DNA of 64,000 nt from an uncultured Clostridia bacterium. Its GTDB lineage: Bacteria > Bacillota > Clostridia > TANB77 > CAG-508. Every line of letters begins with the position of its first letter. Position 1 is the first letter of the stretch. The stretch covers positions 46,509 to 110,508 of the forward strand of contig CANRNW010000001.1 in assembly GCA_947632145.1 (NCBI GenBank). Reading direction: 5' to 3'. Positions 2,185-46,566 of the stretch are shown here, piece by piece. The notes below the pieces were generated by a model. That model was not told the origin of the DNA. It did no database searches and saw nothing but the letters and a program-made list of their open reading frames with translations. The position numbers and the translations under genes are program-made.

Positions 2185-4278
2185 TTGCAAGCAGGAGGTG
2201 ACAAACAAGTGATAGAACCTGAAAAAAACAAATTAAGATATAATATTTTAAATTTATTGATATACATTATTGGAATTGTACTTATATTGAGACTATTTGA
2301 TTTTCAAATAATTCACGGAGAAGAATATAGACAATTATCAAACAATAGATTAACAAGAGAAATAAAAGTTAATCCAGCAAGAGGAAATATTTTAGATAGA
2401 ACTGGAAATGTGCTTGTTGGCAATACTATGGGATTTGAACTACAATTATATAAAAGTAAAATAGAAATAGAAGAACTTAACAATACAATACTAAAAATAA
2501 TAAATATAATAGAAAAAAACGGAGATACATATACAGATACATTTCCAATAAAGATGAGCCCATCTATTGAATATACATATACAGGAGATGAACTTGCAAA
2601 TTGGAAAAAAACAAACAAAATAGGAGACGATGTAGGAGCCGAGGAGGCTATATATATATTCAAAGATAAATATAAGATAAATAGTGATAATATAGAAGAT
2701 ATAAGAAAAATAATATCAATTAGGTATAGAATACAAACAGAAAATTATAGCAGTACAAATCCAATAATAATATCAAAAAATGTTAGCAGACAAACCTTCT
2801 TAGAAATAGATGAAAGAAGAAATGAACTACCAGGAGTAGATATAGTAACACAATCAGTAAGAGACTATAGAAATGGTAAATTAGCATCACACATAATAGG
2901 TTATATGGGAAGAATAAGCGAAGAAGAATATAACGCAAGACCAGATTATGGAATGAATGATTATATAGGAAAACTTGGAATAGAATATATTTGCGAAGAC
3001 TATTTAAGAGGAAAATCTGGAACAAAGCAAGTAGATATGGATGTAAATGGTATGGCAGTTGCAGAGTACGATACAAAAGAAGCAATACAAGGTTCCAATG
3101 TAGTATTAACAATAGATGCAAACTTACAGAAAGTTACAGAAGATGCATTAGCAAAAAATTTGGAAAAAATGCGAAATGGTAGTTTTGGTGAAGTATGTAA
3201 TGCTACAAGAGGAGCGGTAGTTGTTACAAATGTTAAAACTGGTGAAATCCTTGCCATGGTTAGTTTACCAGACTATGAACCACAGTTATTCTTAAATGGA
3301 ATAAGTGAGGCAAAATGGTCAGAATATAGAGAAAACAATGCATTATACAATGTTGCAGCACAAGGAAGTTATGCTCCAGGTTCAACATTTAAAATGGTTA
3401 CAGCAATAGCTGGTCTAGAAACTGGAAATATTACAAGAAACGAACTAATAAATGATATAGGGGTATATCCTTATGGACATCATCCAGAATGTTGGTATAG
3501 AGCAGGACACGGACCTATAAATGTTACAAATGCAATAAAACAATCTTGTAATTACTTTTTCTATGAAGTTGGGTATAGAATGGGAATAGAACCACTAGAG
3601 ACTTATGCAAGATATTTTGGATTAGGAGAGAAAACAGGTGCAGAAGTAATAGATGAAACTTCTGGAACATTAGCAGGAAAAACATATTATGACAAAATAG
3701 GACAAACGTGGTATTTAGGAAATACATTATCAGCAGTAATTGGTCAAGCAGAAAATTCATTTTCTCCATTGCAAATGGCAAAATACATAAGTATACTTAC
3801 AAATGGAGGAAAAAATATAGATTTAACACTTATAAAAACAATAATAAACCAAGACGGCACTGAAGTTCCAAAAGAAGAAATAAATAATTATATAGATCAA
3901 AAAATTGGTAGAACAAGATCAACTAAAGAAGATTTAAACATAGATCCAGAAAACTTAAAAACTGTATTAGAAGGAATGAAATCTGTTGCAAATGACCCTG
4001 GAGGAACAGCTTATAACACATTTAAAAATTTTGAAATAGAAATAGGAGGAAAAACAGGTTCAGCAGAAGCTGGTGATAAATCTAATGGATGGTTTGTCGG
4101 TTTTGCACCATTTGATGAGCCAGAAATAGCAATAGTAGTATTCGTAGAAGGTGGAGAACATGGATCTTATACAGCAGAAGTTGCAAAAGATGTAATATCT
4201 GAATATTTTGGAATGAACCAAGCAAAAGTAGTAGAAGATAATACAATATCTAGCTACAAACAGACAATAAACATGTAG
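2185..4278 (+). CDS. mrdA: Penicillin-binding protein 2 (class B transpeptidase)
   Basis: N-terminal TM, PBP dimerisation region, and transpeptidase motifs STFK, SCN and KTGS. Follows mreBCD. The true start may lie slightly downstream of the listed ORF start. Confidence 0.85.
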   Translation: MQAGGDKQVIEPEKNKLRYNILNLLIYIIGIVLILRLFDFQIIHGEEYRQLSNNRLTREIKVNPARGNILDRTGNVLVGNTMGFELQLYKSKIEIEELNNTILKIINIIEKNGDTYTDTFPIKMSPSIEYTYTGDELANWKKTNKIGDDVGAEEAIYIFKDKYKINSDNIEDIRKIISIRYRIQTENYSSTNPIIISKNVSRQTFLEIDERRNELPGVDIVTQSVRDYRNGKLASHIIGYMGRISEEEYNARPDYGMNDYIGKLGIEYICEDYLRGKSGTKQVDMDVNGMAVAEYDTKEAIQGSNVVLTIDANLQKVTEDALAKNLEKMRNGSFGEVCNATRGAVVVTNVKTGEILAMVSLPDYEPQLFLNGISEAKWSEYRENNALYNVAAQGSYAPGSTFKMVTAIAGLETGNITRNELINDIGVYPYGHHPECWYRAGHGPINVTNAIKQSCNYFFYEVGYRMGIEPLETYARYFGLGEKTGAEVIDETSGTLAGKTYYDKIGQTWYLGNTLSAVIGQAENSFSPLQMAKYISILTNGGKNIDLTLIKTIINQDGTEVPKEEINNYIDQKIGRTRSTKEDLNIDPENLKTVLEGMKSVANDPGGTAYNTFKNFEIEIGGKTGSAEAGDKSNGWFVGFAPFDEPEIAIVVFVEGGEHGSYTAEVAKDVISEYFGMNQAKVVEDNTISSYKQTINM

Positions 4279-4376
4279 GGGCGCATGATTGCACCCGAGC
4301 AAATCACAAAAAAACGTAGGGGCGCATGATTGTACCCGAGCAATCACAAAAACTGTAGGGGCGCATGATTGCGCCC
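4275..4376. repeat. Three tandem ~40-bp units, each with the GC-rich hairpin GTAGGGGCGCATGATTGCGCCC (7-bp stem GGGCGCA / TGCGCCC). The first unit overlaps the mrdA stop codon.
   Basis: Direct reading: units start at 4275, 4316 and 4355. Units 1 and 2 have a degenerate 3' arm (gcaccc / gtaccc). The same hairpin recurs at 15644-15736. Confidence 0.75.
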
Positions 4377-4398
4377 AAACAAAAAAGGAGGAATTAAA

Positions 4399-5004
4399 AT
4401 GGAAAACTGTATTGCCATAAATTTAAAACAAGGAGAAATAATTATTAAAATAGCAGAACAAGTTAGTTATGAAGAAATGATAGAATGTTTAAAAGAAAAA
4501 GTTGCACAATTAAGCAAAATGTATAAAGAAGAAAAAAATCCAATATTTGTAACAGGAAGAGTATTAACAACAAAAGAAATGGAAGACATAAAAAACATAA
4601 TAAAAGAAGAAATAGATGTAGAAATTAAGTTTGATAGTCCTAAAGAAATGGGACTTTCAGAAATAAAAAAAGTATATGAAAGAGATACAGAGAATTCAAA
4701 TACAAAATATTATAGAGGTTCATTAAGATGTGGACAAAAAATGGAATATGAAGGAAGTATAGTAATTATAGGAGATATAAACGGCGGAGCAGAAGTAATT
4801 GCAGGAGAAAATATAATAGTTTTAGGAGCATTAAGAGGACTAGCTCACGCAGGAGCAAAAGGAAATAAAAAAGCCATAATTGCAACAACATCAATAGATG
4901 CACCACAAATAAGAATAGCAAACTTAGTAAAAGAAGTAGTAGAAGTAGCACCAAAGAAACATACATACATATATGTAAAAGACAACGAAATTGTAATAGA
5001 ATAA
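4399..5004 (+). CDS. minC: Septum site-determining protein MinC
   Basis: C-terminal beta-helix domain (IIGDINGGAEVIAGENIIVLGALRGLAHAGAKGNKKAIIAT). RBS AAAGGAGG at 4385. The upstream part of the listed ORF (from 4369) overlaps the repeat. Confidence 0.8.
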   Translation: MENCIAINLKQGEIIIKIAEQVSYEEMIECLKEKVAQLSKMYKEEKNPIFVTGRVLTTKEMEDIKNIIKEEIDVEIKFDSPKEMGLSEIKKVYERDTENSNTKYYRGSLRCGQKMEYEGSIVIIGDINGGAEVIAGENIIVLGALRGLAHAGAKGNKKAIIATTSIDAPQIRIANLVKEVVEVAPKKHTYIYVKDNEIVIE

Positions 5005-6024: not shown

Positions 6025-6090
6025 ATAATTATGTATATATAATTATGGTAACTAAATTTGAATTATGTATATAAGTGGGAGGTAAAATAT

Positions 6091-9000
6091 ATGCTAACAA
6101 AAATTTGTAAAAACAAGAAAACACAGAGGATATTAGCAATTTTGCTGATAATTACAATGACACTTGTAAATATCTTATTTTTGGGGAAGAATTTAATAGC
6201 GTATGCATTCGAAACGGATTTAGAGTCACAAAATGAAAACACACAATCAAACAATGTAAAATTTGATGCATATTTTAACGACAACGGAGGTAAAAATGTA
6301 CACTCTGCTATTTTTGATGCAACAAGTAATAATTCGATAATAAACTTACACCTTGCAGTAAAAGATGCAGGCTACCTAAAAGAAGCATATATTGATTTTA
6401 GAGATGAACAAAATTCAACTGATACGAATTATGATATAATTTCAGATTTGGATGATACAACACTAATCCAAAATGTTAATAAAGAATTAAAAACAATAGC
6501 ACTAAACTTTGTGGATTATGGAACAGATGCAGTAATTCAAATACCAGTAAGAACAGTAATTCCAAATTTGATGGACATAAATAAACTAAAACAAAAAACT
6601 AATGTAACACTTAGAGGAATATATGTAGATAGACTTGGAACTGAAATGGACATATTAAAAACAATAACTTTAAGTTTAGGTTGGAACATAGAAACAGAGT
6701 TAAACCTAGAACAATCAGTTGTAAAATATATTCCATACACAAACAATGAACAATCAGGAATTTTATTACAAATGCAAGTTACAGAAAAACAAAATAAAGA
6801 AGATTTTGTTTTACCAGTAAAATCTTCTGAAATAAAAATAGAAGTACCAAAAATTGCAGATGTTTTACCAGAAAATGCAATAGTAATTGCAGATCAAACT
6901 TTAGCAACAAATGGAGACAAAATCGAATTTACTGAAAATAATTGGAACTATGATAAAGAAAATGGAACAATTTCAATTAAATCAGAAATGTATCAAGAAG
7001 AAGGAAAAGTATGGGCAGGAACAGGAGCTGATACATACTTAATCACATATATATATCCAAATGCAACAATAGACGAGGAACAAACAATTACATCTAACAT
7101 AGAAGCAAAAATGGAAAACTTTAGTGCAGAAGGAGTAGTAGAGAAATCAGCAACATTAAATGAAGAAATAATATTAAATGAAGAAATAGGAAGCATAGTT
7201 ACATACAGTGTAAAAGCAAATCAAGAAGAAATGTCAAAAGGAAGAATGTATGCAAACTGTAATTCAGATATAAAAAATTATGATACAGCTTATGAATTAA
7301 CAATTAAAGCAAATGTATCAAACTACGAAACAGTAGAAAAATTAGCATTTGAAATACCAACAGACACTTTCTTAAAAGGAGAAAAAGAATATTCAATACC
7401 AAATACATATTCTAATCAAATAACAATAAGCAAAGCAAATATGCAAAAAGTACTAGGAGAAGATGGATTTGTTAAAATGTCTGATGGAACAGGTACATAT
7501 ATAATAAATTCAGAAACTGAAGATGTAGATGGAAACTACATAATCAATTTAGACGAGCAAATATCAAATATTATGATAGAAACATCAAAACCAATAGCAG
7601 ACGAAATATTTAAAATAGATGTAAGCAAAATTATATCTAAAGATTTAATATATCCAAAAGCACAATTAAAAGAATTCGATACTTTAAAAGTAAATGTTTA
7701 TGCAAATAGCGATGTTATATCTGACACAATTGCTTTAACAGAAACAAGCACAAATGCAAAATTAGAAATGAGTAATGTAGACCTAGTTTCATCAACAGAA
7801 AATAAAGATGTAAACTTCAAAATAATTTTAAACAATAGCAGTGAAAATTCAGATTTATATAAAAATGCAGTATTTGAAATAGCTCTACCAAAATACATAG
7901 AAGATATATATGGAATGGCAAATATATTATATTCAAGTGGATTAGAGATAGACAAAATAGAAAAAGTAAGCACAGAAAATGGAATAGTATTAAAAATAAT
8001 AACAAAAGGTGCAGAAAACTTATTCAGTGATGGAGTACTTACAAATGGTGCAGTTATAACAATAGATGCTACATTAAAAATAGGAGAATTAGAAGAAAAT
8101 GTATCAGATAAAGTAATATTTACATATACAAACGAAAATGCTATTGCCTATGAAAATGAAGGAAAAGAAGAAATTGATGTAAACTTTATTGCAAGACCAA
8201 AAACAGAAACACAAAATGATCAACCAGAAGTAGTAACTAATCCAAACTTAACAGCTGATTTAGATGAAAAAGCAACATTAGAGGCAAATACAAAGATAAT
8301 CTATCAAGAAGAAGAAATAGACTCAACAGATTCAGTAATGGAAAAACAAGAAGTAATATATATAACAACAATAAAAAATACAAGTACAGTTGATGCTACA
8401 AATGTTCAACTAGTTACAAATATACAAAATGGAAAAATATTAAATACAAATATGAAAATATTAGATGAAACTGGAAGTATATTAACTACACAAGACCATA
8501 CAGTAAATGAAGAAAATGTAACTACATTCACAGCTAACTGGGAAAAAATACCAGCAGGAGGAAGCGGAGTATTAGAATATATTGTTATTCCAAAAGATGT
8601 AAAAGAAATAAAAACAAGCGAAAATCTATCAACTAGAAATGACCAATATATAAAATATGATGATGAAGGTAATTCAACAGTTATTACTTACGAAGAATAT
8701 ATTGAGTACTTAAAGTTAAAAAATACAGTAGAAGTAACAGGACAAAACTTAGATGAAAAAATAGAACATGAAGTAAAGAATATTATAAATGAAACTGATA
8801 TAGTAGTCGAATTGTCAGAAGATAGCCAAGCAATTTTCTTAAATGATTATGAAGTTCAAATGAATTTGGTTGTAAGCAATGTATCAGAAGAAGACATAAA
8901 TGATGTTGTTATAACACAAGTTATACCAGAGGGGTTAGAGTTTGTGCCATTAAAAGGGCAAGAAGATATAAAATATAATGAAAATACTAGAACTATAACT

Positions 9001-10644
9001 ATAAATGTAGATAAAATTGAAGCTAATAGCCATTTTATAGAAGTTATAAATGTAAAAACAAATTTACCAGAAACAGTTGGAAATATGCAAATAGCAAATA
9101 GGGCAAAAGTTAGTGTAGAAGGAAAAGGAACTTGGTATTCAAATACAACAACATTAAATGTAATTGCCCCAGTATTAAGTGTAAATTTAAATTCAAATAT
9201 AACAAATGGATCATATGTAAAAGAAGGACAAAATATTGAAATAACAGGAATAGCAAAAAATACAGGTGGAACGATATCAAGGAATACAATACTTTCAATA
9301 AATTTACCAGATGGCTTTGAAGTAACAGATGCAACTTATACACTAGATAGTGGAGAAACACAAGAATTAACAACAATATATGGAAATGAATATCAGTTAA
9401 CTACTTCATTAGACATGGGAGAAAAAATTGCATTTAAAATAGTAGGAACGGCAACTGTTCAAAATGGTTTGGCTGAAGAAGAAATAAATATCAAAGCTAC
9501 AATTGAAGATGAAAAGAGAGCTCCAGTATCATCAAATGTGTTAACATATAAAATAGAAAAAGTTATAGATGATCCAGACAATCCAGATGACCAAAATCCA
9601 GATAATCCAACAGTAAAAACATATAGAATATCTGGTAAAGCTTGGTTAGATGAAAACAAAGATGGAAAATTAGATGAAAATGAAAAACTATTAGAAGGAA
9701 TAAATGCATTATTGATAGATTCAAAAACTGGAGTTATAGTTACAGATAGAACAAATGGAACGATTAAAGAAACAAAAACTTCAAGCAAAGGTGAATATAC
9801 TTTTTCAAATTTACTTCCTGGTTCATACATAGTAATATTTGAATATGACTCTAGCTTATACAACATAACAGAATACAATAAATCAGGAGTAACAGAAGAT
9901 TTATCTTCAAAAGCAATACAAACAAATGTAAATAGAGATGGAGTTACAAAGATAGCAGGAGCAACAAATACAATTACAATTTTAGACTCAAGTATTGCAA
10001 ATATAAATATAGGATTAGTGGAAAATCCAAAATTTGATTTAAGTTTAAAAATGGAATTATCTAAAGCTACAATAGTAAATTCATCTGGAACAAAAGAGTA
10101 TACATTCAATAATGCTAAATTGGGAAAAATAGATATACCAGGTAAATATTTAAGTTCAACAACTGCAACAATAGAATATAAAATAACAATAAAAAATGAA
10201 GGAGCAGTTGAAGGAATTGCTAAAAAAATAGTAGATTATCTACCAAGTGATTTAAACTTTGATGAAATACAAAACCCTGGTTGGTATAAAGATAAAGATG
10301 GTAATATCTATAACAATACTTTAACAAATACAATAATAAAACCAGGAGAAACACAAGAATTAAAACTAATACTAACAAAGAAGATGACAGGTGAAAATAC
10401 AGGAACAATAACAAATAGAGCAGAAATATATGAAGATTATAATGAACTTGGACTTAAAGATTATAATTCTAGCACTGGAAATAAGGCACAAGGAGAAAAC
10501 GATTTAGACTATGCAAACTTAATAATAACAGTTAAAACAGGACAAGTTGCAGTGTATATAACAATTACATTTATAAGTATAGCAATAATAGCACTAGGTG
10601 TTTACGAAATAAATAAAAGAGTATTGAAGGGAGGGATAAACTAA
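6091..10644 (+). CDS. Giant cell-surface protein (about 1517 aa) with Cna-B/SdrD-B-like and DUF11 repeat domains and a C-terminal TM anchor
   Basis: N-terminal signal/TM. SdrD-B-like segment GKAWLDENKDGKLDENEKLLEGINALLID...GEYTFSNLLPGSYIVIF. DUF11-like segment TATIEYKITIKNEGAVEG. C-terminus VKTGQ + hydrophobic helix + KRVLKGG. The listed ORF start at 6058 lies upstream of the RBS-supported ATG at 6091. Confidence 0.8.
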   Translation: MLTKICKNKKTQRILAILLIITMTLVNILFLGKNLIAYAFETDLESQNENTQSNNVKFDAYFNDNGGKNVHSAIFDATSNNSIINLHLAVKDAGYLKEAYIDFRDEQNSTDTNYDIISDLDDTTLIQNVNKELKTIALNFVDYGTDAVIQIPVRTVIPNLMDINKLKQKTNVTLRGIYVDRLGTEMDILKTITLSLGWNIETELNLEQSVVKYIPYTNNEQSGILLQMQVTEKQNKEDFVLPVKSSEIKIEVPKIADVLPENAIVIADQTLATNGDKIEFTENNWNYDKENGTISIKSEMYQEEGKVWAGTGADTYLITYIYPNATIDEEQTITSNIEAKMENFSAEGVVEKSATLNEEIILNEEIGSIVTYSVKANQEEMSKGRMYANCNSDIKNYDTAYELTIKANVSNYETVEKLAFEIPTDTFLKGEKEYSIPNTYSNQITISKANMQKVLGEDGFVKMSDGTGTYIINSETEDVDGNYIINLDEQISNIMIETSKPIADEIFKIDVSKIISKDLIYPKAQLKEFDTLKVNVYANSDVISDTIALTETSTNAKLEMSNVDLVSSTENKDVNFKIILNNSSENSDLYKNAVFEIALPKYIEDIYGMANILYSSGLEIDKIEKVSTENGIVLKIITKGAENLFSDGVLTNGAVITIDATLKIGELEENVSDKVIFTYTNENAIAYENEGKEEIDVNFIARPKTETQNDQPEVVTNPNLTADLDEKATLEANTKIIYQEEEIDSTDSVMEKQEVIYITTIKNTSTVDATNVQLVTNIQNGKILNTNMKILDETGSILTTQDHTVNEENVTTFTANWEKIPAGGSGVLEYIVIPKDVKEIKTSENLSTRNDQYIKYDDEGNSTVITYEEYIEYLKLKNTVEVTGQNLDEKIEHEVKNIINETDIVVELSEDSQAIFLNDYEVQMNLVVSNVSEEDINDVVITQVIPEGLEFVPLKGQEDIKYNENTRTITINVDKIEANSHFIEVINVKTNLPETVGNMQIANRAKVSVEGKGTWYSNTTTLNVIAPVLSVNLNSNITNGSYVKEGQNIEITGIAKNTGGTISRNTILSINLPDGFEVTDATYTLDSGETQELTTIYGNEYQLTTSLDMGEKIAFKIVGTATVQNGLAEEEINIKATIEDEKRAPVSSNVLTYKIEKVIDDPDNPDDQNPDNPTVKTYRISGKAWLDENKDGKLDENEKLLEGINALLIDSKTGVIVTDRTNGTIKETKTSSKGEYTFSNLLPGSYIVIFEYDSSLYNITEYNKSGVTEDLSSKAIQTNVNRDGVTKIAGATNTITILDSSIANINIGLVENPKFDLSLKMELSKATIVNSSGTKEYTFNNAKLGKIDIPGKYLSSTTATIEYKITIKNEGAVEGIAKKIVDYLPSDLNFDEIQNPGWYKDKDGNIYNNTLTNTIIKPGETQELKLILTKKMTGENTGTITNRAEIYEDYNELGLKDYNSSTGNKAQGENDLDYANLIITVKTGQVAVYITITFISIAIIALGVYEINKRVLKGGIN

Positions 10645-38282: not shown

Positions 38283-39146
38283 GTGATGTATATCGAATTA
38301 TTAAACCCCAAAAATGATTATGTATTTAAAAGAATATTTGGACACAGAGGTAATGAAGAGATAACAAAGCAAATGTTGCAAACTATAATAGCATGTCAAA
38401 TAAAAGATATAAAATTATATGAAAGTAAAATATTAGAAAAAGATCTATTAGATGATAAACTAGGAATAGTAGATATATATGTAAAACTAAATGAAAATGT
38501 AAATGTAGATATTGAAATGCAAGTAGCTAAAGAAAGCAATATAGAAAAAAGAATGTTATATTATTGGAGTAAATTGTATACAAAAGAACTAAAAGCAGGA
38601 GAAGATTATAGTAAATTGCATAAAACCATAGCAATATTGATGGCAAATTTCAAAATTAGTGAACTAAAAGAAATACCTAAATTTTGTACAAAATGGCAAA
38701 TAAAAGAAGAAGAATACACATCTGTCATATTGACAGATGCACTAGAAATATATATAATAGAAATACCAAAAATAAGAGAAGATAAAGGAGTAGCAAGAAA
38801 AGAACTAAAAGAATGGCTAACATTTTTGGAAAATCCAGAAAAAGTGGAGATGATAGGAATGAGCACTGAAAATAAAGAAGCAATAATAAAAGCAAAAAAG
38901 GTATTAGAAGAAATAAGTGCAGATGAACATGAAAGATATTTAGCTCATTTAAGAGAAAAATATATAAGAGATTCAAAATCAATAGAAAAGTACGGATACG
39001 ATAATGGATATGGTAATGGATACGATAATGGATTGGATGATGGATTGAAACAAGTAGCAAAGAAAATGTTAGAGCAAAAATTTACTATGGAGCAAATTAT
39101 ATCTGTAACAGGCTTAACAAAAGAGGAAATAGAAAAATTAAAATAA
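38283..39146 (+). CDS. Rpn/YhgA-like recombination-promoting nuclease (PD-(D/E)xK putative transposase, TIGR01784-like)
   Basis: The N-terminal region (YVFKRIFG...DIYVKLNENVNVDIEMQV) matches the Rpn family. Confidence 0.65.
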   Translation: MMYIELLNPKNDYVFKRIFGHRGNEEITKQMLQTIIACQIKDIKLYESKILEKDLLDDKLGIVDIYVKLNENVNVDIEMQVAKESNIEKRMLYYWSKLYTKELKAGEDYSKLHKTIAILMANFKISELKEIPKFCTKWQIKEEEYTSVILTDALEIYIIEIPKIREDKGVARKELKEWLTFLENPEKVEMIGMSTENKEAIIKAKKVLEEISADEHERYLAHLREKYIRDSKSIEKYGYDNGYGNGYDNGLDDGLKQVAKKMLEQKFTMEQIISVTGLTKEEIEKLK

Positions 39147-39407
39147 TTAATATATTAAAACTGTGCGATGAAACACACACCTTAAATGTTAAAAAAATTT
39201 AACATATTAAGGTGTATTTTTTATTGTGATGTTTCCATATTTTGCCATGTATACACAAAAACTAACCATACTTAAAAACCTACTATGCTTACACCTACAA
39301 GGTTTACAATCAAAAATTTGTTCTAAAAATATTGAATTTAAAAATTTTATAGTATAAAATGTAAGAAAAATTGATATACTATAAAATTTGTTTTTAATAG
39401 GTGTTTT

Positions 39408-39824
39408 ATGAGTAAATTATTTGATCAATATAAAAGTTTAAAAGAGAAAGATGAAGGTAAAATATATTTATTTAAAAGTGGAATATTCTATATAGCATTA
39501 GACAAAGATGCGGAATTTTTATCGAATGCGGTAGGATTTAAACTTACACCTTTAAATGAAAACATAAAAAAATGTGGATTTCCAATAAGTAGAATCGATT
39601 ATTATAAAAAAATATTTGATATAGGAAATATAAATTACGAGTTAATAGATATGAATCCTATTATAGTAGATGCAAAAAATTTAAAGGAAAATAAAGATTT
39701 GAATTTTATGATAAATAAACTACAAAATATAGATTTTAATGACATTACATATAAACAAGCATATGAAACATTAGAAGATTTAAGCAACAGGGCAAAACAA
39801 ATTACTTTAAATTGTATGGAATAA
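39408..39824 (+). CDS. Standalone MutS domain I (mismatch-binding domain)-like protein, 138 aa
   Basis: FDQYKSLKEKDEGKIYLFKSGIFYIALDKDAEFLSNAVGFKLT aligns with the MutS N-terminus ([43 protein letters not shown]). It ends after 138 aa. Confidence 0.45.
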   Translation: MSKLFDQYKSLKEKDEGKIYLFKSGIFYIALDKDAEFLSNAVGFKLTPLNENIKKCGFPISRIDYYKKIFDIGNINYELIDMNPIIVDAKNLKENKDLNFMINKLQNIDFNDITYKQAYETLEDLSNRAKQITLNCME

Positions 39825-39865
39825 TAAGACCATAATAAAATAAAAAAAGAAAGGATGAATTACAA

Positions 39866-40597
39866 ATGAAACTAAGAAAAACATTAACAGTACTAATACT
39901 TATAATAATGTTTTGTGTATTATTACAAGGTTCAGTACAAGCAGCATTACAAAGTGTACCAAAAGGAACAACAAAACGCGATACTGCAACAAATTGGGTA
40001 ATCAATGTAAGAAAAATGGAAAATGCAGGAGGAGGAATGGGACTAAAAGAAACAACAAATGAAACATCAGGACTTGCAGAAAGCCAAAGCAATAATATAG
40101 ATGTGCATTTATTAAAAAGTACAGAATATGGAGCGATAGTATTACTTGGAGCATCAGATTATGGGAAACAGGGAACAAGTATAGATGCAAGAAGAATGGA
40201 TCAAGGAGCAACAACAGGAAATGATGTACAAGCAAGTACAACAGGAAACAAGTATGGAATATATGAATTAGGATATGAAAACATGCAGGCGGACACTAAA
40301 AATGCATATTATGAATGGGTAGCAGGAGGACTATCTACATTTTTACCTAATATAGCACCAAGATATGTAGATATATATACAACAGATAAAGTAGGAAAAC
40401 CAGGTGATGCAACAATAGAAGGAAGTGTAGACTTCTCTAATTGGCATACAAGCTCTCCTCTCAGCAATTGGGTTACGTCTAGTAACCCTGGCTTCAACCG
40501 TGGCTACGTGAACTACGGTGTCTTCTCTCGCAGCTTCAGTACTGCTAGTAGTAGTTACGGTGCTCGTGCGTCTGTCGTTTGTGGTGTCGGACTTTAA
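39866..40597 (+). CDS. DGR target protein: secreted protein with a C-terminal variable region (FGE/C-type-lectin-like VR end)
   Basis: Signal peptide. The 3' roughly 140 nt is near-identical to the downstream TR except at TR adenines. The C-terminus ...ARASVVCGVGL is typical of DGR VR ends. Confidence 0.8.
   Translation: MKLRKTLTVLILIIMFCVLLQGSVQAALQSVPKGTTKRDTATNWVINVRKMENAGGGMGLKETTNETSGLAESQSNNIDVHLLKSTEYGAIVLLGASDYGKQGTSIDARRMDQGATTGNDVQASTTGNKYGIYELGYENMQADTKNAYYEWVAGGLSTFLPNIAPRYVDIYTTDKVGKPGDATIEGSVDFSNWHTSSPLSNWVTSSNPGFNRGYVNYGVFSRSFSTASSSYGARASVVCGVGL
40455..40597 (+). repeat. DGR variable repeat (VR)
   Basis: About 143 nt aligned to the TR with 12 mismatches, all at positions where the TR has A. 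Confidence 0.85.
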
Positions 40598-40659
40598 TGA
40601 TGTACTGATTTTTGTTCTTTGATGTAGGGCGAAAATTTCATATAGGGATTATGCTGTGG

Positions 40660-40803
40660 CACTCCTAACAGCAATTGGGTTACGTCTAGTAACCCTGGCT
40701 TCAACCGTGGAAACGTGAACAACGGTGTCTTCTATCGCAACAACAATACTGCTAGTAATAGTAACGGTGCTCGTGCGTCTGTCGTTTGTGGTGTCGGACT
40801 TTT
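40660..40803 (+). repeat. DGR template repeat (TR), non-coding, rich in AAC triplets
   Basis: See the VR entry. The listed ORF 40725-41345 runs through it spuriously. Confidence 0.85.
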
Positions 40804-40985
40804 ATATGGCAAAATATATAAAATATATTTTAAATCAGAGGGGTAGAACTTTACGGAGGCTACCGTGTATTACATATAAAAGAAGCATAATTCCTTCCTT
40901 AATTGGTAAAACAAAAAAACTTAATGCAGTGCAAGTAGAAATTTTTGAAAGTGATGCATTAAATAAAATTTTAAAGAGGAAATAT

Positions 40986-41345
40986 ATGCCAAAAGTAGAT
41001 AATAGGTTAGTTACCTATGAAAAAATTACAATGCTTATATATTATTCTAAAAACTTGCTAAATAAATATCCTAAAACAGAAAGATTTGATTTATGTACAG
41101 ATATAAAACAAATTTTATATAAATGTTTAAGAAATACAACATTTGCGTGGAAAGAGTATTCAAACAAAGAAAAATTGAAATATTTAAAAGAAGTAGATGT
41201 AGATTTGGTAATGTTAAAAAGTTTAGTTAGAATATCATATAATTTTCAGTATATATCACAGAAAAATTATATGACATGGAATGAACATATTAGTGAAATT
41301 GGAAAACTAATTGGAGGATGGATTAAAACTTGCCAAAGCGCATAG
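40986..41345 (+). CDS. avd: DGR accessory variability determinant (Avd)
   Basis: About 119-aa helical basic protein between TR and RT (MPKVDNRLVTYEKITMLIYYSKNLLNKYPKTERFDL...). RBS AGAGGA upstream. Confidence 0.7.
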   Translation: MPKVDNRLVTYEKITMLIYYSKNLLNKYPKTERFDLCTDIKQILYKCLRNTTFAWKEYSNKEKLKYLKEVDVDLVMLKSLVRISYNFQYISQKNYMTWNEHISEIGKLIGGWIKTCQSA

Positions 41346-42355
41346 ATAACATATTTCGTCCTAAATTAAAATTCAAGAATATGTTAGAAGCATATAAACG
41401 TGCTTCAGATAAGAAACATTACAATAAAGAAGTAATTATTTATGAAATGGATTTAGCATCAAATTTAGTAAAAGTGTTAAAAGAGTTGTATAGTAGAACA
41501 TATAAAACAAGTGAGTATCGTTCGTTTACTGTTTATGAACCAAAAGAAAGAATAATAAGAGCATTGCCATTTAAAGATAGAATAGTACAGCAATGGTATG
41601 TTGAGGAATTTATAAAGCCAATATTTTTACCTAAATTTATATCCGATTCGTATGCCTGTATTCCTTCAAGAGGAGTACATCAAGCTGTACATAAATTGAG
41701 ACAATATACTTATAATATGAGCAAAAAAAATAAAGATTTTTATTTCTTAAAATGTGATATAGCTAAATTTTTTAATAGTATAGATAAAGACATTTTATAC
41801 ACAATAATTAAAAGATATGTTAAAGATAAATATTTTTTAGAATATACAAGATTGTTAATATATAGTGATGAAGGACTTGCTGGAATTCCAATTGGTAATT
41901 ATACATCACAATATTTTGCAAATATATATTTAAATACATTTGACCACTATGTGAAAGAAGTTTTAAAAGTAAAATATTATGTTAGATATATGGATGATTT
42001 TGCTTTTATTTTAAATTCTAAAGAAGAATGCAAAGAAGTTCTAGAAAAAGTAAGGATTTTTTTAGAAGAAAAACTTAAACTTAAGCTAAATAAAAAAACG
42101 AATTACTTTAAGGGAAAGCAAGGAATAAACTTTTGTGGTTATAGAATATTTGCAACACATATTTTGTTAAAACAATCTAATAAAAAGAAAATGTATAAGA
42201 AATTAAAAAATTGGAACAAAGCATATGATAAAAAGCAATTAGAATTGAAAGAAACATTTACAAAGTTAGCATCTTGGGAAGGACATGCAAAAAATGCAGA
42301 TACATTTTATTTAAGAAAAAAAGTAAGAAAAATGTGCAACTGGTTATATGAATAA
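41330..42355 (+). CDS. DGR reverse transcriptase
   Basis: RT motifs (IRALPFKDRIVQQ, YVRYMDDFAFIL). TTG start overlapping the avd end. Confidence 0.85.
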   Translation: MPKRIDNIFRPKLKFKNMLEAYKRASDKKHYNKEVIIYEMDLASNLVKVLKELYSRTYKTSEYRSFTVYEPKERIIRALPFKDRIVQQWYVEEFIKPIFLPKFISDSYACIPSRGVHQAVHKLRQYTYNMSKKNKDFYFLKCDIAKFFNSIDKDILYTIIKRYVKDKYFLEYTRLLIYSDEGLAGIPIGNYTSQYFANIYLNTFDHYVKEVLKVKYYVRYMDDFAFILNSKEECKEVLEKVRIFLEEKLKLKLNKKTNYFKGKQGINFCGYRIFATHILLKQSNKKKMYKKLKNWNKAYDKKQLELKETFTKLASWEGHAKNADTFYLRKKVRKMCNWLYE

Positions 42356-42378
42356 AATCCTAACAAAAGGAGAAAAGA

Positions 42379-45300
42379 ATGAAACAAAATGTTAGAAATT
42401 TAAAACAACAAAAAATATATAGAAGAAGGAGAACCGCTCTTATCGTACTATTAGTAGCGTTAATAGCTCTAATAGTGGCAATATATGCAACAAATAGTAC
42501 ACTTAAAACAACTGCAGAGGTAGGAAATAATATAGATATAAAAGGGCGTAGTATAGATATATCTAATGTAATAAGTGCTGAACCGAATCCACCAGTAGTT
42601 GGAGCAGGAATGATACCAATAAAATGGGATGACGGAATCGAAATGTGGGTAATAACAACTGCAAACGATAAAGAGTGGTATGACTATTCTAAAGGCAAAT
42701 GGGCAAATGTAATGCTAAGTGATGGTTATTATAAATCTGAACTAGAAGTAGGAATAGCAAACGACCAATTGGTATCAAATTCAGTAGGAGTAAGCGTTTC
42801 AGATGATAAATTAGGTACAATATTTACATGGATACCAAGACTTACATATTTAGAGGAAAGAGTAGAATATTTAAAAGGAAATAGTATATTAGAATATCAA
42901 TGGACAACAGAGAGCTGTTTTAATTTAGAAAAATATGGAGCAAATAAATTAGACTTAGCATTTTTAGGAATATGGATAGGACAAACAGAATATAAAGATA
43001 TAGCCGAAGTAGAAACAAAAAATTCAGAAATGAATGAAGAAGAAAATGAGCAAGGTTTAATTACAAATGAAATGGTTTCAACCTTAACTGCAAGCGATAA
43101 AACAGCAGTACAAAAACTATACGACAAAACTATAGATGGAGCAGACTTAAGCAAACTTCATGAAATTATACAAAATCCAGAAGAAATACAAAATAGACAA
43201 ACAATTAAAATAGTAAACACAAATAATAGAATACCATTAGTTGGAACACATGAAATAAAAGAAGATTATATAATAGTAAAAGAAAAATATGCAGAAAATA
43301 CATTTTTATATAGTTTTAATAAAAATGGAGAATTACCAACAGGGGCAGGATATGTAATAGATGATAAAGAAACAAATTATACTTTCTATTTAGTAGATAA
43401 CATAGGAAATATAAGAAGATACAAAATGAGCTATGGTAGTGGAAAACCAGACATAACAAAATTTAATCCAAGCAATACATTTTATGTGTTATATGATGAA
43501 GAAGGAAATGAAAACAGTGTAATACCAGTAGGAGAAAAATTAACTAATGAACAACAGGAACAATGGTATAATTATAAAGATTCAAAATGGGCAAATATAG
43601 TAGTAAGAGATAACGGATGTGAAAACTATTATGTATGGATACCAAGATATATGTATAGAATAACTGACACTGAAAATCAAAGAGTGGAAGTAAAGTTTGT
43701 AGACTTAAGTAATGTATGTACAGATGAAGAAAAAGAAATAGATTTAAATAATACAGATTTTAAACTACCAGAAGCATTTACATGGGAAGACCCAGAAAAT
43801 CCAAGCGAAAAGATACAATTAACAGGATTTTGGGCAGGAAAATATAAATTACAAGATAGAGAGGAATATGAACCAGAAATAAGTGGTGGAGCTGGAGTAA
43901 TCAGAGTAAACAATATATTATCACATTATGGAGAAGGATATAAATATGAAATGTACCTAATACAAGATGGAAAAAGAGTAATACAAGATGGAGAAAATCT
44001 AGTAGAGGGAACAGATCCAATAAATTTAGAGGGAAACTATACATTTAAAGGTATAGAACCTGGATATTATACAGTTAACATAGCAGTAAAAGATAGTGAT
44101 GGAAATTATATAAAATCAATAGCAAAGGAAGTTTTAGTAAGAGAATCTTCAGATCCAGAAAAACCAGACTTAACAGGATTTAATCCAAACTTAACATACT
44201 ATGTAACATATGATGATGAAGGATATGAGCAAAGTAATATTCCACTAAATGATGAACAACCAGCAGATTGGTATGATTATGATGCTTCAAAATGGGCAAA
44301 CATAGTAGTAAGAGAAAATGGATGCGAGAACTACTATGTTTGGATACCAAGATATGAATATACTTTAGACACATCACATGAAAAAACGAATATACAATTT
44401 ATAAAAGTAGATGAATTTGCACAACCAGGATTTGTATTACCAGAAGCATTTACATGGGAAGACCCAGAAGACCCAGACAAAAAAATACAATTACCAGGAT
44501 TTTGGGCAAGTAAATACAAATTAAGAGATGATACAGTATATAACTTATCAGTATCAGTAACATCAGGAGAAACAAGTATAAAAGTTAGTGGATTTATACC
44601 TAAAACAGAGAAAGTTCCAACAAATTATGAAGTTAGTTTAATACAAGCTGGAAAAGTAATAGAAACAAGAAAGATAGAAAATACAACAGATGCAAGTTGT
44701 TTATTTGAACAATTAAAACCTGGAGAAACTTATGGAATAAATGTAATAGCTTTAGATGAAGCAGACAAAATGATATCAGGATATTCAACAGAAGTAACTT
44801 TAGTAAAAATAGAAATAGATTTATCTAAATTTAATCCAAATACTACTTTCTATGTAACATACGATGAAGAAGGAAATGAAAATAGTTTAATTCCAATAGG
44901 AGAACCTATACCAGACAATTGGAGCGACTATGCAAACCAAAAATGGGCAAATATAGTTGTAAGAGATAATGGATGCGAGAACTATTATGTATGGATACCA
45001 AGATATGAGTATGTAATAAATGAAGGAGAGCAAAAAGCAAAAGTAGTGTTTACAAATAAGGATGAGGCAACACCTGGTTATATAATACCAGAAGCATTTA
45101 CTTGGGAAGATCCAGAAAACCCAGATGAAAAGATACAACTTCCAGGATTCTGGGCAGGAAAATATAAATTACAAGATAGAGAAGAATATGAGCCAGAAAT
45201 AAGTGGTGGAGCTGGAGTAATTAGAATAAATAATATATTGGCACATTATGGAGCAAATAATAAATATGAAATATATTTAATTCAAGAAGGAATAAGAATT

Positions 45301-46566
45301 AAAAACACTGCTAGTAGTCCAATACCATTAACTGATAATATTCATACAATTGGAGATTTAGAAGAAGGAACATACTCAGTAAATATAGTAGTAAGAGATA
45401 AAGATGGAAATTATATAAGATCAATAGCAAAAGAAGTATATGTAAGAAAAGAAGCAACGCCAGAAAAGCCAGACTTAACAGGATTTAATGAAAACTTAAC
45501 ATTCTATGTAACATATAACGCACTAGGACAAGAAGAAAGTTATATTCCAATAAAGGATGAAGCACCATCAAATTGGTATAATTACAATGCAAGCCAATGG
45601 GCAAACATAGTGGTAAGAGAAAATGGACATGAAAACTATTATGTATGGATACCAAGATATGAATATGCTTTAGATACAGCACATGAAAAAACAGATATAC
45701 AATTTATAGATAAAAATGTAGTTGAAGCAGATGATGGATATACAATACCAGAAGCATTTACTTGGGAAGATCCAACTGATTCAAGTCAAAAGATACAGTT
45801 AGCAGGATTTTGGGCAAATAAATATAAGCTAAGAGATGGAGCAGATTCAACAGCATTTAGACTAGATGCATCAATAACAACAAGTGGAAATAAAATAAAA
45901 GTAAGCAATATTGTAGCATCTGATAGTACAATACAAAATTATACAGTATATCTAATAAAAGCTGGACAAATACAACAAACACAGCAATTACCACTAGGAG
46001 GAGATTATACATTTACAGTAGGTAGCGAAGGAACATATTCAGTAGAAATAGTACAACATAGCACAACAGCAGGAATAGTAGCAGGGGTTGCAAAAGAAGT
46101 TGTAGTAAAAGAATTAGATCCACCAGATGTAACAGGATTTAGAGTAGATACAACATATATAGTAACATATACTAGCGATGGAACAGAAAATCGTACAAAA
46201 TTAGCAGATGTGTTAGAAGCAGGAGCAGTATTAAATGATGACCAAACATTAAAAACAGGAAAAATAGACAAAAGTAAAGTAAATGGATGGTATGATTATG
46301 CAGAACAAAAATGGGCAAACATAGTAACAGTAAATCAATTAGAAGATGGTAGTGTTGTAGAAAACTATTTCGTATGGATTCCAAGATATGAATATGTTTT
46401 AGGAAATATATCTCAGCAGAGAATAGCTGTTAAATTCCTAAGAAAAGATGAAATGGCAGATATAGGCTATACAATACCAGAAAGTTTTACATGGAAGAAA
46501 GATGATGGAACAGTAGAACAGCTATCAGGTTTCTGGGCAAGTAAGTATAAGTTAAGACAACAATAA
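42379..46566 (+). CDS. Membrane-anchored 1395-aa protein built from six ~125-aa tandem repeats (WANIVVRxNGCENYYVWIPRYEY ... PEAFTWEDPE ... GFWAxKYKL) alternating with Ig-like modules
   Basis: Read from the translation and from near-identical DNA repeats (e.g. 43840-43930 vs 45150-45240). No family recognised. Confidence 0.6.
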   Translation: MKQNVRNLKQQKIYRRRRTALIVLLVALIALIVAIYATNSTLKTTAEVGNNIDIKGRSIDISNVISAEPNPPVVGAGMIPIKWDDGIEMWVITTANDKEWYDYSKGKWANVMLSDGYYKSELEVGIANDQLVSNSVGVSVSDDKLGTIFTWIPRLTYLEERVEYLKGNSILEYQWTTESCFNLEKYGANKLDLAFLGIWIGQTEYKDIAEVETKNSEMNEEENEQGLITNEMVSTLTASDKTAVQKLYDKTIDGADLSKLHEIIQNPEEIQNRQTIKIVNTNNRIPLVGTHEIKEDYIIVKEKYAENTFLYSFNKNGELPTGAGYVIDDKETNYTFYLVDNIGNIRRYKMSYGSGKPDITKFNPSNTFYVLYDEEGNENSVIPVGEKLTNEQQEQWYNYKDSKWANIVVRDNGCENYYVWIPRYMYRITDTENQRVEVKFVDLSNVCTDEEKEIDLNNTDFKLPEAFTWEDPENPSEKIQLTGFWAGKYKLQDREEYEPEISGGAGVIRVNNILSHYGEGYKYEMYLIQDGKRVIQDGENLVEGTDPINLEGNYTFKGIEPGYYTVNIAVKDSDGNYIKSIAKEVLVRESSDPEKPDLTGFNPNLTYYVTYDDEGYEQSNIPLNDEQPADWYDYDASKWANIVVRENGCENYYVWIPRYEYTLDTSHEKTNIQFIKVDEFAQPGFVLPEAFTWEDPEDPDKKIQLPGFWASKYKLRDDTVYNLSVSVTSGETSIKVSGFIPKTEKVPTNYEVSLIQAGKVIETRKIENTTDASCLFEQLKPGETYGINVIALDEADKMISGYSTEVTLVKIEIDLSKFNPNTTFYVTYDEEGNENSLIPIGEPIPDNWSDYANQKWANIVVRDNGCENYYVWIPRYEYVINEGEQKAKVVFTNKDEATPGYIIPEAFTWEDPENPDEKIQLPGFWAGKYKLQDREEYEPEISGGAGVIRINNILAHYGANNKYEIYLIQEGIRIKNTASSPIPLTDNIHTIGDLEEGTYSVNIVVRDKDGNYIRSIAKEVYVRKEATPEKPDLTGFNENLTFYVTYNALGQEESYIPIKDEAPSNWYNYNASQWANIVVRENGHENYYVWIPRYEYALDTAHEKTDIQFIDKNVVEADDGYTIPEAFTWEDPTDSSQKIQLAGFWANKYKLRDGADSTAFRLDASITTSGNKIKVSNIVASDSTIQNYTVYLIKAGQIQQTQQLPLGGDYTFTVGSEGTYSVEIVQHSTTAGIVAGVAKEVVVKELDPPDVTGFRVDTTYIVTYTSDGTENRTKLADVLEAGAVLNDDQTLKTGKIDKSKVNGWYDYAEQKWANIVTVNQLEDGSVVENYFVWIPRYEYVLGNISQQRIAVKFLRKDEMADIGYTIPESFTWKKDDGTVEQLSGFWASKYKLRQQ

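Follow-up and report, generated by a model that had tools for sequence, protein, structure and literature searches.

The locus described here, which lies within a 64-kb stretch of DNA from an uncultured Clostridia bacterium (termed here the window; all features given below are on its + strand), is very probably a complete, chromosomal diversity-generating retroelement (DGR) of the type that carries a MutS-like (MSL) accessory gene. To our knowledge, prokaryotes have no natural system of targeted protein hypermutation other than DGRs. Because thousands of them have already been catalogued, one additional DGR is not news; this element is a clean further example of a well-known device, one that rewrites the binding surface of a secreted lectin-like protein.

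A first-pass annotation of this DNA had proposed a complete element at 39866-42355, and each of the components that it named--a target gene ending in a variable repeat (VR), a template repeat (TR), avd and a reverse transcriptase (RT)--can be identified and is borne out by an independent test. The element nevertheless reaches further upstream, to the MSL gene at 39408-39824. Nor is the order 'canonical', as had been stated: it is MSL-target/VR-TR-avd-RT, which is that of an Architecture D cassette (see below), rather than the target-avd-TR-RT order of the BPP-1 DGR. The setting is chromosomal, as indicated by the genes nearby (rpoB/rpoC, acpS, tatD and addB), and a search of viral contigs returned no matches to the element.

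The repeat pair and the reverse transcriptase

The VR (40452-40595) and the TR (40659-40802) constitute an ungapped direct repeat of 144 nt at an offset of 207 nt, in which the VR forms, in frame, the final 48 codons of the target ORF (39866-40597) and the TR is intergenic. All 13 of the differences between the two copies occur at TR adenines (A to T at 7 positions, A to C at 3 and A to G at 3), and there are no differences at other bases anywhere in the 144 nt; with 34 adenines among the 144 sites, the corresponding hypergeometric P is 8.8e-10. When the TR is read in the frame of the VR, codon positions 1-2 hold 32 of its 34 adenines and 12 of the 13 differences, and 9 AAC and 3 AAT codons are found. 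The homology stops at 40595/40802, after which the next bases are A40596 in the VR, where it belongs to the TAA stop codon, and T40803 in the TR.

Realignment and tabulation bear out the earlier statement that the mismatches are confined to TR adenines; the description of the TR as AAC-rich is likewise borne out by the codon count, and the TR and VR peptides that were quoted agree exactly with the codon table. The figure of 12 mismatches given at that time is right for a shorter span starting at 40455, the thirteenth being at 40454/40661. The VR itself had been placed at 40455-40597, which is indeed the in-frame 3' end of a 243-aa ORF but which includes A40596, a base outside the repeat. No further TR copy and no second VR occur within the window.

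A direct repeat could, of course, also arise if the 3' end of a gene were duplicated, tandem-like, in the ordinary way and the copies then diverged by normal mutation or gene conversion, with an unrelated RT adjoining them. The bare existence of the repeat, and nothing more, fits this explanation, whereas the substitution pattern refutes it: all 13 differences fall on sites where one copy has A, which amount to 24% of the total, and the chance of this is 9e-10. Moreover, conserved and covarying RNA helices enclose the repeat on both sides, and of the 14 related loci with a VR/TR pair most show the A-biased pattern again. Thirteen related loci show it (L001, L002, L009, L014, L015, L030, L036, L041, L042, L043, L046, L047 and L048), with L043 having no more than 10 of its 20 mismatches at A; L044 also has a VR/TR pair, of whose 14 mismatches merely 7 are at A. 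An origin by simple duplication is accordingly a negligible prospect.

The RT gene (41330-42355; 341 aa, with a TTG start and a 16-nt overlap with avd) encodes IGNYTSQ at residues 188-194 and, in agreement with the active site noted earlier, YMDD at residues 220-223; its RVT_1 score is 73 bits. The IGxxxSQ motif, where other RTs have QGxxxSP, is a diagnostic signature of the DGR clade. In a PDB search the RT matches 8ub7 (BPP-1 bRT by sequence, 328 aa) with an E-value of 3.3e-55 across residues 2-328, as compared with about 1e-19 at best for group II and retron-type RTs, and it is 37.5% identical to BPP-1 brt (E 1e-38, covering 96% of the query). Shared with bRT are K29, F66, R74, I76 and the I-G...Q of IGxxxSQ--residues reported to contact the template or dNTP--as well as the catalytic Asp residues. 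Together the closest matches and the IGxxxSQ and YMDD motifs support, at the sequence level, assignment of this RT to the DGR clade. The gene that precedes it, avd (40986-41345; 119 aa, pI 9.4), was earlier noted as an Avd-like ORF following the TR, and its product passes the cutoff of the NCBIfam DGR-Avd equivalog NF033474 (DivGenRetAVD; 91.4 bits versus 80) and that of Pfam bAvd, PF22296 (85 bits versus 40); a single-sequence PDB search with Avd returned no match.

An RT of group II intron or retron type had been named at the outset as counter-evidence to a DGR, and a defence-type RT (DRT/Abi) may be considered along with these, the repeat then being incidental. Such an RT would account for weak NCBIfam similarities to group II, Drt3a, retron St85 and Drt2 proteins, but similarities of this kind are expected for any bacterial RT, and all are far below the curated cutoffs: 122 versus 300 bits for group II (TIGR04416), 64.5 versus 200 for Drt3a, 64 versus 235 for retron St85 (NF038233) and 46 versus 390 for Drt2. 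The best PDB and phage matches, by contrast, are bRT and brt over the full length, and an Avd equivalog lies immediately upstream. Neither a group II nor a retron RNA family was detected in an Rfam scan of 39000-43000 (E<=1), in which the RT-14 RNA was the sole match, and the RNA adjacent to the RT carries a TR homologous to a coding VR, which speaks against a retron. That the RT is of one of these other types is consequently improbable in the extreme.

Structured RNA around the template repeat

The DNA flanking and following the TR specifies a series of predicted RNA helices that the first-pass annotation had not noted. Their 49 proposed pairs are 96.3% paired in 12 related elements (a small sample for covariation), and sliding the partners lowers this to 40-53%; compensatory change is seen in 19 pairs, as against 3-7 in the slid controls. 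The first of these helices, termed here the stop duplex, joins a 5' strand, AGGGAUUAUGCU (40644-40655), which ends 3 nt ahead of the TR, to a 3' strand, AGCAUAAUUCCU (40884-40895). It comprises 12 bp in all 8 of the loci tested, with compensatory changes, and is 99% paired in the 12-sequence alignment; its counterpart in BPP-1 is the avd:Sp 'cPRT Stop' duplex (bioRxiv 10.1101/2023.10.23.563531). A 3-bp helix suggested by RNAalifold, GGA (40796-98) with UCC (40892-94), was dropped, since the stop duplex, which is supported in all loci, uses the same UCC.

The second helix is a TR:spacer duplex of 10 bp between a template strand, CUUUUAUAUG (40799-40808), and a primer strand, CAUAUAAAAG (40873-40882), which lies 1 nt ahead of the 3' strand of the stop duplex; it is 98% paired, with compensatory change in 4 pairs, and resembles BPP-1's TR:Sp template:primer duplex. 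The block of VR/TR homology (40659-40802) therefore sits between the stop duplex (to 40655) and the primer duplex (from 40799). By analogy, cDNA would probably start just 5' of the template strand, at about 40798, and the invariant G40882/A40883, modelled after Sp A56 of BPP-1, is the inferred position of priming.

Four further elements are proposed within the spacer. An AU-rich hairpin directly 3' of the TR (40813-40829) is less well supported, with 85% of cells paired and 2 of 6 pairs compensatory. A stem-loop at 40842-40864, which is 9 bp long with a single bulged base and is capped by a UACG (UNCG) tetraloop, with compensatory change in 5 of its 9 pairs, fits the description of the Avd-binding stem-loops located just downstream of the TR. 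The segment at 40897-40920, which consists of a 2-bp stem-loop, CC-UUAAUU-GG (40897-40906), and an A-rich single strand (40907-40920), corresponds by position only to the stop stem-loop, A-minor adenosines and 'thumb ring' of BPP-1; because its sequence is invariant in the 12 loci, it offers no testable covariation. Finally, a long stem-loop with an internal loop (40921-40962; 10 pairs, 6 of them compensatory, 98% paired) occupies the position of the bRT-binding element of BPP-1.

Part of this RNA is matched by an Rfam family, RF02921 (RT-14 RNA), whose model aligns end to end with 40828-40963, apart from its outer 5' stem, which is absent here. The score of 47.8 bits (E 1.6e-5) is slightly under the gathering score of 48.1, and the same element occurs right after the TR at L014, L015 and L036 with scores of 54.6-58.2 bits, above gathering. 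The stop and primer duplexes reach beyond the RT-14 model. Weinberg et al. 2017 connected RT-10 alone with a DGR and gave RT-14 no assignment (PMC5737381), and a literature search found no paper that brings RT-14 together with a DGR; the present locus links this orphan motif to the spacer RNA of a DGR.

Viewed from the perspective of BPP-1, these elements suggest the following series of events. A transcript spanning approximately 40644-40962 would fold such that the 12-bp stop duplex and the 10-bp template:primer duplex join the ends of the TR, and the stem-loops of the spacer would be bound by Avd and the RT. The RT would then use the RNA itself as primer beside the 3' end of the TR (at about 40798), copy toward the TR 5' end while misincorporating opposite adenines, and halt at the stop duplex. 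The mutagenised cDNA would take the place of the VR (40452-40595) and thereby recode as many as 20 codons that contain adenine, for the most part AAC or AAT, within what is presumed to be the ligand-binding face of the C-terminal part of the target.

The target protein, its giant partner and the MSL gene

The target gene (39866-40597) encodes a variable protein of 243 aa, with the VR at its 3' end, that begins with a Sec-type signal peptide (approximately residues 1-26, ...SVQA|AL). In the modelled structure the mature protein of 217 residues consists entirely of one C-type-lectin-fold domain, with no additional domains, which agrees with the earlier suggestion that the VR lies on a C-terminal fold of ligand-binding type. 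Structurally, the model is best matched by two DGR variable proteins, TaqVP (5vf4) and TvpA (2y3c), to which the target has an identity of only 17-18% and relative to which it is smaller and lacks extra domains. It matches no family in Pfam-A or NCBIfam, FGE-sulfatase and DUF1566 of Pfam included. The exact protein was found on one contig only, and contig look-ups with the exact sequence of the target (P0001), and with that of a paralog on the same contig (P0071), returned nothing.

Downstream of the RT is a conserved partner gene (42379-46566) for a protein of 1395 aa, with a membrane anchor at the N-terminus and five repeats of about 220 aa, each composed of a beta domain of about 125 aa plus an FN3 domain. 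The gene for this giant FN3-repeat surface protein is linked to the target gene across related loci and stands outside the retroelement machinery. The two-gene module is present in multiple copies in these bacteria: one MAG has at least 7 such loci, only 1 of which includes a DGR. The targets define a family of minimal lectin-fold proteins, secreted and without exception paired with a giant surface protein, and this pairing hints at the purpose of diversification in these uncultured gut bacteria.

Upstream of the target, the MSL gene (39408-39824) encodes a protein of 138 aa and pI 5.6, residues 4-67 of which resemble the mismatch-binding domain I of MutS (Pfam MutS_I, 40.9 bits versus a cutoff of 20.6). 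Within the GxFYE motif the Phe, by which MutS wedges into mismatches, is kept (F27) and the Glu is replaced (I29). A single-sequence PDB search gave no match, but a profile built from 6 homologs matched MutS chains only, the best of these being Taq MutS (1ewq; E 0.002). Among related loci the MSL gene occurs with 8 of 14 that have an RT versus 2 of 34 that lack one (Fisher p 2.7e-4), and its position and strand vary relative to the cassette. MSL proteins are a known class of DGR accessory protein (PMC5758913), described as small MutS-like proteins of 112-283 aa with a mean pI of 7.2 +/- 1.7 that occur in avd-containing, HRDC-less cassettes; the MSL-containing DGRs, a Legionella DGR among them, make up what Wu et al. 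2018 term 'Architecture D'. The protein encoded here belongs to this family, its length being within that range and its gene lying alongside avd, with no HRDC; its pI differs from the Architecture D mean. It may possibly handle the mismatched cDNA:VR heteroduplex.

A broader and rather doubtful proposal is that the variable lectin protein serves as an exchangeable, diversified binding subunit of the giant FN3-repeat protein, that one DGR may service or seed several paralogous targets, and that the MSL may act on an A-mismatched cDNA:VR heteroduplex so as to fix the new sequence. If either the subunit or the MSL reading is true, DGR biology would gain a new layer, mechanistic or functional.

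Target-site signals, activity and comparison with BPP-1

The first-pass annotation had suggested that an IMH and a hairpin lie near 40598-40660, and these were not confirmed. The VR is identical to the TR up to the end of the homology, with differing flanks only; within the repeat itself no IMH/IMH* asymmetry can be seen. The VR-TR spacer contains a weak, imperfect hairpin (TTTTGTTC...GGGCGAAAA, 40608-40639), which may possibly be a counterpart of the BPP-1 target-site hairpin; its DNA fold of -3.9 kcal/mol is not significant (z -1.16). DNA folds of 40556-40665, of 40590-40662 and of 7 relatives likewise revealed no significant hairpin (z -1.4 to +1.1), and the relatives have in common only a 4-bp GCCC/GGGC stem, which here is GTTC/GGGC. 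In a promoter scan of 39150-42450, consensus sites were fewer than in shuffles.

These weak signals, and the departure from the stem of the relatives in particular, are what would be expected of a relic, that is, of a DGR whose parts can still be recognised but which has lost retrohoming (for example, through degenerate target-site signals) and whose VR is frozen. Decayed relatives do exist, inasmuch as L007 has a fragmented RT and both L043 and L044 have many non-A mismatches; in addition, a pattern search for other VR variants (80 nt of VR/TR, with N at each TR adenine) yielded 0 matches in metagenome and viral contigs. Against this, the ORFs of the RT, of Avd and of the MSL are intact, the catalytic and template-contacting residues are kept, the RNA helices are all intact, and the VR and TR have none of the non-A differences that the decayed relatives show. 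A relic is on balance unlikely. Its intact parts and the lack of any non-A mismatch suggest that the element is still active, as the first-pass annotation had expected; and because all of its ORFs are intact and no non-A differences separate VR from TR, the last homing event would be recent.

The element belongs to a lineage that occurs in uncultured gut Clostridia and that pairs the target gene with that of a giant FN3-repeat surface protein, and it differs from the BPP-1 DGR in several respects. The BPP-1 DGR is phage-borne and this one chromosomal; the target is a secreted, single-domain protein here and a tail-fibre tip there; an MSL gene is present that BPP-1 does not have; and neither a recognisable IMH/IMH* pair nor the GC-rich 8-bp hairpin of BPP-1 is found. 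As a result of the target-TR-avd-RT gene order, the spacer RNA lies between the TR and avd, whereas in BPP-1 (mtd-avd-TR-brt) it separates the TR from the RT, and it matches Rfam RT-14, whereas the BPP-1 motif is RT-10. In common with BPP-1, the element has A-specific transfer from TR to VR, an Avd and an RT of the same clade, and a C-type-lectin-fold target with a C-terminal VR. Moreover, the RNA elements follow one another just as in the BPP-1 cryo-EM structure: an upstream stop strand, the TR, an Avd-binding stem-loop with a UNCG loop, the primer strand, the second stop strand, a short stem-loop, an A-rich single strand and a long RT-binding stem-loop. That this arrangement can be matched, element by element, in a distant, low-GC Clostridia lineage favours a conserved mechanism of priming and stopping.

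An adenine-specific repeat pair

The locus is a diversity-generating retroelement (DGR), for which every testable hallmark apart from target-site signals was found and whose activity itself is predicted from the sequence. A single long direct repeat, offset by exactly 207 nt, is present in the region, and a base-by-base alignment of its copies--the variable repeat (VR; 40452-40595) and the template repeat (TR; 40659-40802)--is collinear and gap-free over 144 nt. The copies differ at 13 positions (seven A>T, three A>C and three A>G changes), at each of which the TR base is A; because the TR has only 34 adenines in 144 sites, the hypergeometric probability of such confinement is 8.8e-10. This bears out the adenine-only divergence claimed by a first-pass annotation made from the sequence alone, whose count of 12 mismatches is correct for a span starting at 40455, but the full repeat adds one at 40454/40661. 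The peptides that it gave for both repeats were reproduced exactly.

Homology ends at 40595/40802, and the very next base is the first flank difference (a TAA stop in the VR, TTA in the TR); the VR forms the final 48 codons of ORF 39866-40597. Read in this frame, the TR contains nine AAC and three AAT codons, and both its adenines (32 of 34) and the VR/TR changes (12 of 13) fall at codon positions 1 or 2. There is no further TR copy elsewhere in the 64-kb window. The interval 40452-40802 is also a sharp composition island, the repeats having about 50% GC in a window of 28% GC and beside a target gene whose remainder has 34%.

Reverse transcriptase and accessory proteins

The gene for the accessory variability determinant (avd; 40986-41345) encodes a basic protein (pI 9.4) that scores 85 bits against Pfam bAvd (cutoff 40) and 91.4 bits against the NCBI DGR-Avd equivalog NF033474 (cutoff 80), so that an ORF initially termed Avd-like passes an equivalog cutoff. 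The reverse transcriptase (RT) gene (41330-42355) begins at a TTG, overlaps avd by 16 nt and is classified by Pfam as generic RVT_1. Its closest solved structure, by far, is PDB 8ub7 (E 3.3e-55, residues 2-328), a 328-aa chain with the sequence of bRT, the RT of the prototype DGR of Bordetella phage BPP-1; among GenBank phages it matches BPP-1 brt (37.5% identity across 96% of the protein, E 1e-38). Assignment to a group II intron or retron clade, which the first-pass annotation had named as evidence against a DGR, is disfavored by how far behind the next PDB matches--group II intron and retron-type RTs--fall (E about 1e-19). NCBIfam scores as a group II RT/maturase, Drt3a, retron St85 or Drt2 likewise lie far under the curated cutoffs. 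The RT retains K29, F66, R74, I76, the I-G...Q of IGNYTSQ (188-194) and, as first proposed for its active site, YMDD (220-223); the BPP-1 cryo-EM study reports these residues as touching the metal, the incoming dNTP or the base being templated (bioRxiv 10.1101/2023.10.23.563531).

The cassette of target/VR, TR, avd and RT described at first is present, but a gene for a 138-aa MutS-like accessory protein (MSL; 39408-39824), on the same strand as the target gene and 41 nt upstream of it, had been missed. The N-terminal half of MSL matches Pfam MutS_I (40.9 bits, cutoff 20.6), and a six-homolog profile retrieves only MutS chains from the PDB (Taq MutS, E 0.002), with ...LFKSGxFYxxxDxDA... aligned to the GDFYE mismatch-binding motif of MutS. 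Among MSL homologs the motif Phe (F27 here) is invariant, and the Glu position is occupied by I, V or N. MSL proteins are a known DGR accessory class that defines 'Architecture D', occurring always with avd and never with HRDC (Wu et al. 2018, PMC5758913). Of 48 related loci (GTDB genomes, 40; metagenomes, eight), the 14 with an RT include eight that carry MSL, versus two of the 34 lacking an RT (Fisher p 2.7e-4); those two are truncated contigs. The gene order, earlier called canonical, is more precisely MSL-target/VR-TR-avd-RT, since that of BPP-1 is target-avd-TR-RT. In related loci the TR invariably comes straight after the VR, and the positions of avd-RT and of MSL shift (for example, MSL-avd-RT-target-TR in L009 and avd-RT-MSL-target-TR in L015).

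Target family, related loci and activity

The 243-aa target carries a Sec-type signal peptide and matches nothing in Pfam or NCBIfam; at least 290 homologs were found, none with a Pfam domain. In an AlphaFold model (67-sequence alignment; pLDDT 87.8, pTM 0.82) the entire mature protein is predicted to be a single lectin-fold domain that ends in the VR. C-terminal positions that face TR adenines are hypervariable among the homologs, whose scaffold positions keep the pattern W..GF.RG..G.F....ARA.VV.G.G[LF]. Downstream lies a partner gene (42379-46566) encoding 1395 aa with an N-terminal membrane anchor and five repeats of about 220 aa, one of which was modeled (pLDDT 89) as a beta domain of about 125 aa plus an FN3 domain. 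A partner homolog follows the target gene in 40 of the 48 loci, the other eight having little or no sequence downstream. A lectin-fold target family that lacks Pfam-A and NCBIfam matches and has a giant FN3 surface protein as its partner is mildly new. A target paralog (P0071; 254 aa, 45% identity), apparently on the same 142,947-bp NCBI contig outside the window, has a C-terminus that does not resemble the TR-encoded peptide.

The surroundings are chromosomal (rpoB and rpoC at 17048-24104, acpS, tatD, addB, cell-wall and surface proteins), and IMG/VR viral contigs contain neither the VR/TR pattern nor the RNA motif. A PD-(D/E)XK 'transposase' (PF12784, E 9e-47; 38283-39146, + strand) lies a short way upstream of the cassette; it has homologs beside related loci L002, L015, L020, L030 and L038 and could mark a recombination-prone or mobile neighborhood. 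Surface and secreted proteins are numerous in the region; among them are two adjoining giant ORFs (1528 and 1644 aa; 6058-15578, + strand) with SdrD_B, DUF11 or CarboxypepD_reg domains and a papain-like protease with lectin-like and dockerin domains (56012-58021, + strand).

Nearly all of the related loci belong to uncultured gut Clostridia and Clostridium MAGs, with human (including Hadza), rabbit and mouse as hosts, the nearest locus being L001 (identity 99% for avd, 91% for RT and 67% for target). Of the 14 RT-bearing loci, 13 carry a VR/TR pair, the exception being L007; L044, truncated before the RT, has one as well. The mismatches are A-biased in most pairs (e.g., 18/18, 16/16, 13/13 and 20/22). 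L007 is an example of DGR decay within the lineage: its RT (3993-4699) lies in three frameshifted fragments and avd is undetected, with the MSL, target and partner genes remaining. L043, L044 and L048 (oriented with the target gene on the + strand) carry an additional partial target C-terminus (residues ~170-243) between target gene and TR, have 10/20, 7/14 and 15/19 mismatches at A, respectively, and may be decaying or rearranged elements. In L045 (1370-1720 of contig WFLX011461970.1) the target ORF continues into unmutated Asn-rich TR-like sequence and then spacer RNA, with no separate VR, a layout suggestive of deletion by VR-TR recombination; the database proteins P0041 and P0083 represent read-throughs of the same type. 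The rabbit-gut MAG CANRED01 has at least seven paralogous target/partner loci (L005, L006, L008, L010, L012, L013 and L015) and a sole RT-avd-TR cassette, in L015, whose TR also matches the 3' end of the L005 target gene (13/18 mismatches at A); this suggests that L005 is a second, remote or former, target.

In BPP-1 the VR is marked as recipient by an IMH unlike the IMH* of the TR and by a GC-rich hairpin. Here the VR and the TR remain identical right to where homology ends, and the spacer (40596-40658), where the first-pass annotation had pointed to a possible IMH or hairpin, folds weakly (-3.9 kcal/mol, z -1.16). Relatives' spacers share at most a 4-bp GCCC/GGGC stem (GTTC/GGGC in the window), and part of the flank sequence is conserved (GGACTTTAAT.ATGT.CTG). 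Pattern searches of metagenome and IMG/VR viral contigs yielded no other VR variants, and the exact target protein is known on just one NCBI contig. Intact ORFs, intact RNA helices and zero non-A VR/TR differences nevertheless argue for recent activity, as opposed to the fragmented RT of L007 and the many non-A mismatches of L043 and L044.

The RNA around the TR compared with that of BPP-1

The first-pass annotation missed the DGR RNA around the TR. Between TR and avd, 40828-40963 matches Rfam RT-14 (RF02921; 47.8 bits, E 1.6e-5) at 0.3 bits below the gathering threshold, and in three related loci the homologous element, immediately 3' of the TR, scores above it (54.6-58.2 bits). RT-1 to RT-19 were found near RT genes, and only RT-10, the BPP-1 TR-RT spacer, was tied to a DGR, the others being left open (Weinberg et al. 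2017, PMC5737381); the link of RT-14 to DGR spacer RNA is mildly new.

An explicit structure, tested on a TR-region alignment of 8 and then 12 related elements, spans 40644-40962: a 12-bp stop duplex pairing 40644-40655, just upstream of the TR, with 40884-40895; a 10-bp primer duplex pairing the TR 3' end (40799-40808) with 40873-40882; an AU hairpin at 40813-40829; a stem-loop of 9 bp (40842-40864) that has a single bulge and is capped by a UACG tetraloop; a stem-loop of 2 bp (40897-40906) with an A-rich single strand after it; and a long stem-loop (40921-40962). Over the 12 sequences, 96.3% of cells are paired versus 40-53% after the 3' partners have been shifted by 1-3 columns, and 19 pairs show compensatory change versus 3-7 in these controls. 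The VR/TR homology block begins 4 nt past the stop duplex and ends 4 nt inside the primer duplex; such limits would be expected if cDNA synthesis began beside the primer duplex and halted ahead of the stop duplex. By analogy with BPP-1, the priming nucleotide is probably G40882 or A40883, and the first template base would be about 40798.

The elements occur in exactly the same order as in the BPP-1 RNP structure: the upstream strand of the 'cPRT Stop', the TR, an Avd-binding stem-loop with a UNCG loop, the primer strand, 1-2 nt, the stop strand, a short stem-loop, adenosines, a single-stranded 'thumb ring' and an RT-binding stem-loop (bioRxiv 10.1101/2023.10.23.563531). The locus is an addition to a known class of DGRs; it is mildly new that every RNA element of BPP-1 could be mapped onto a distant Clostridia DGR.
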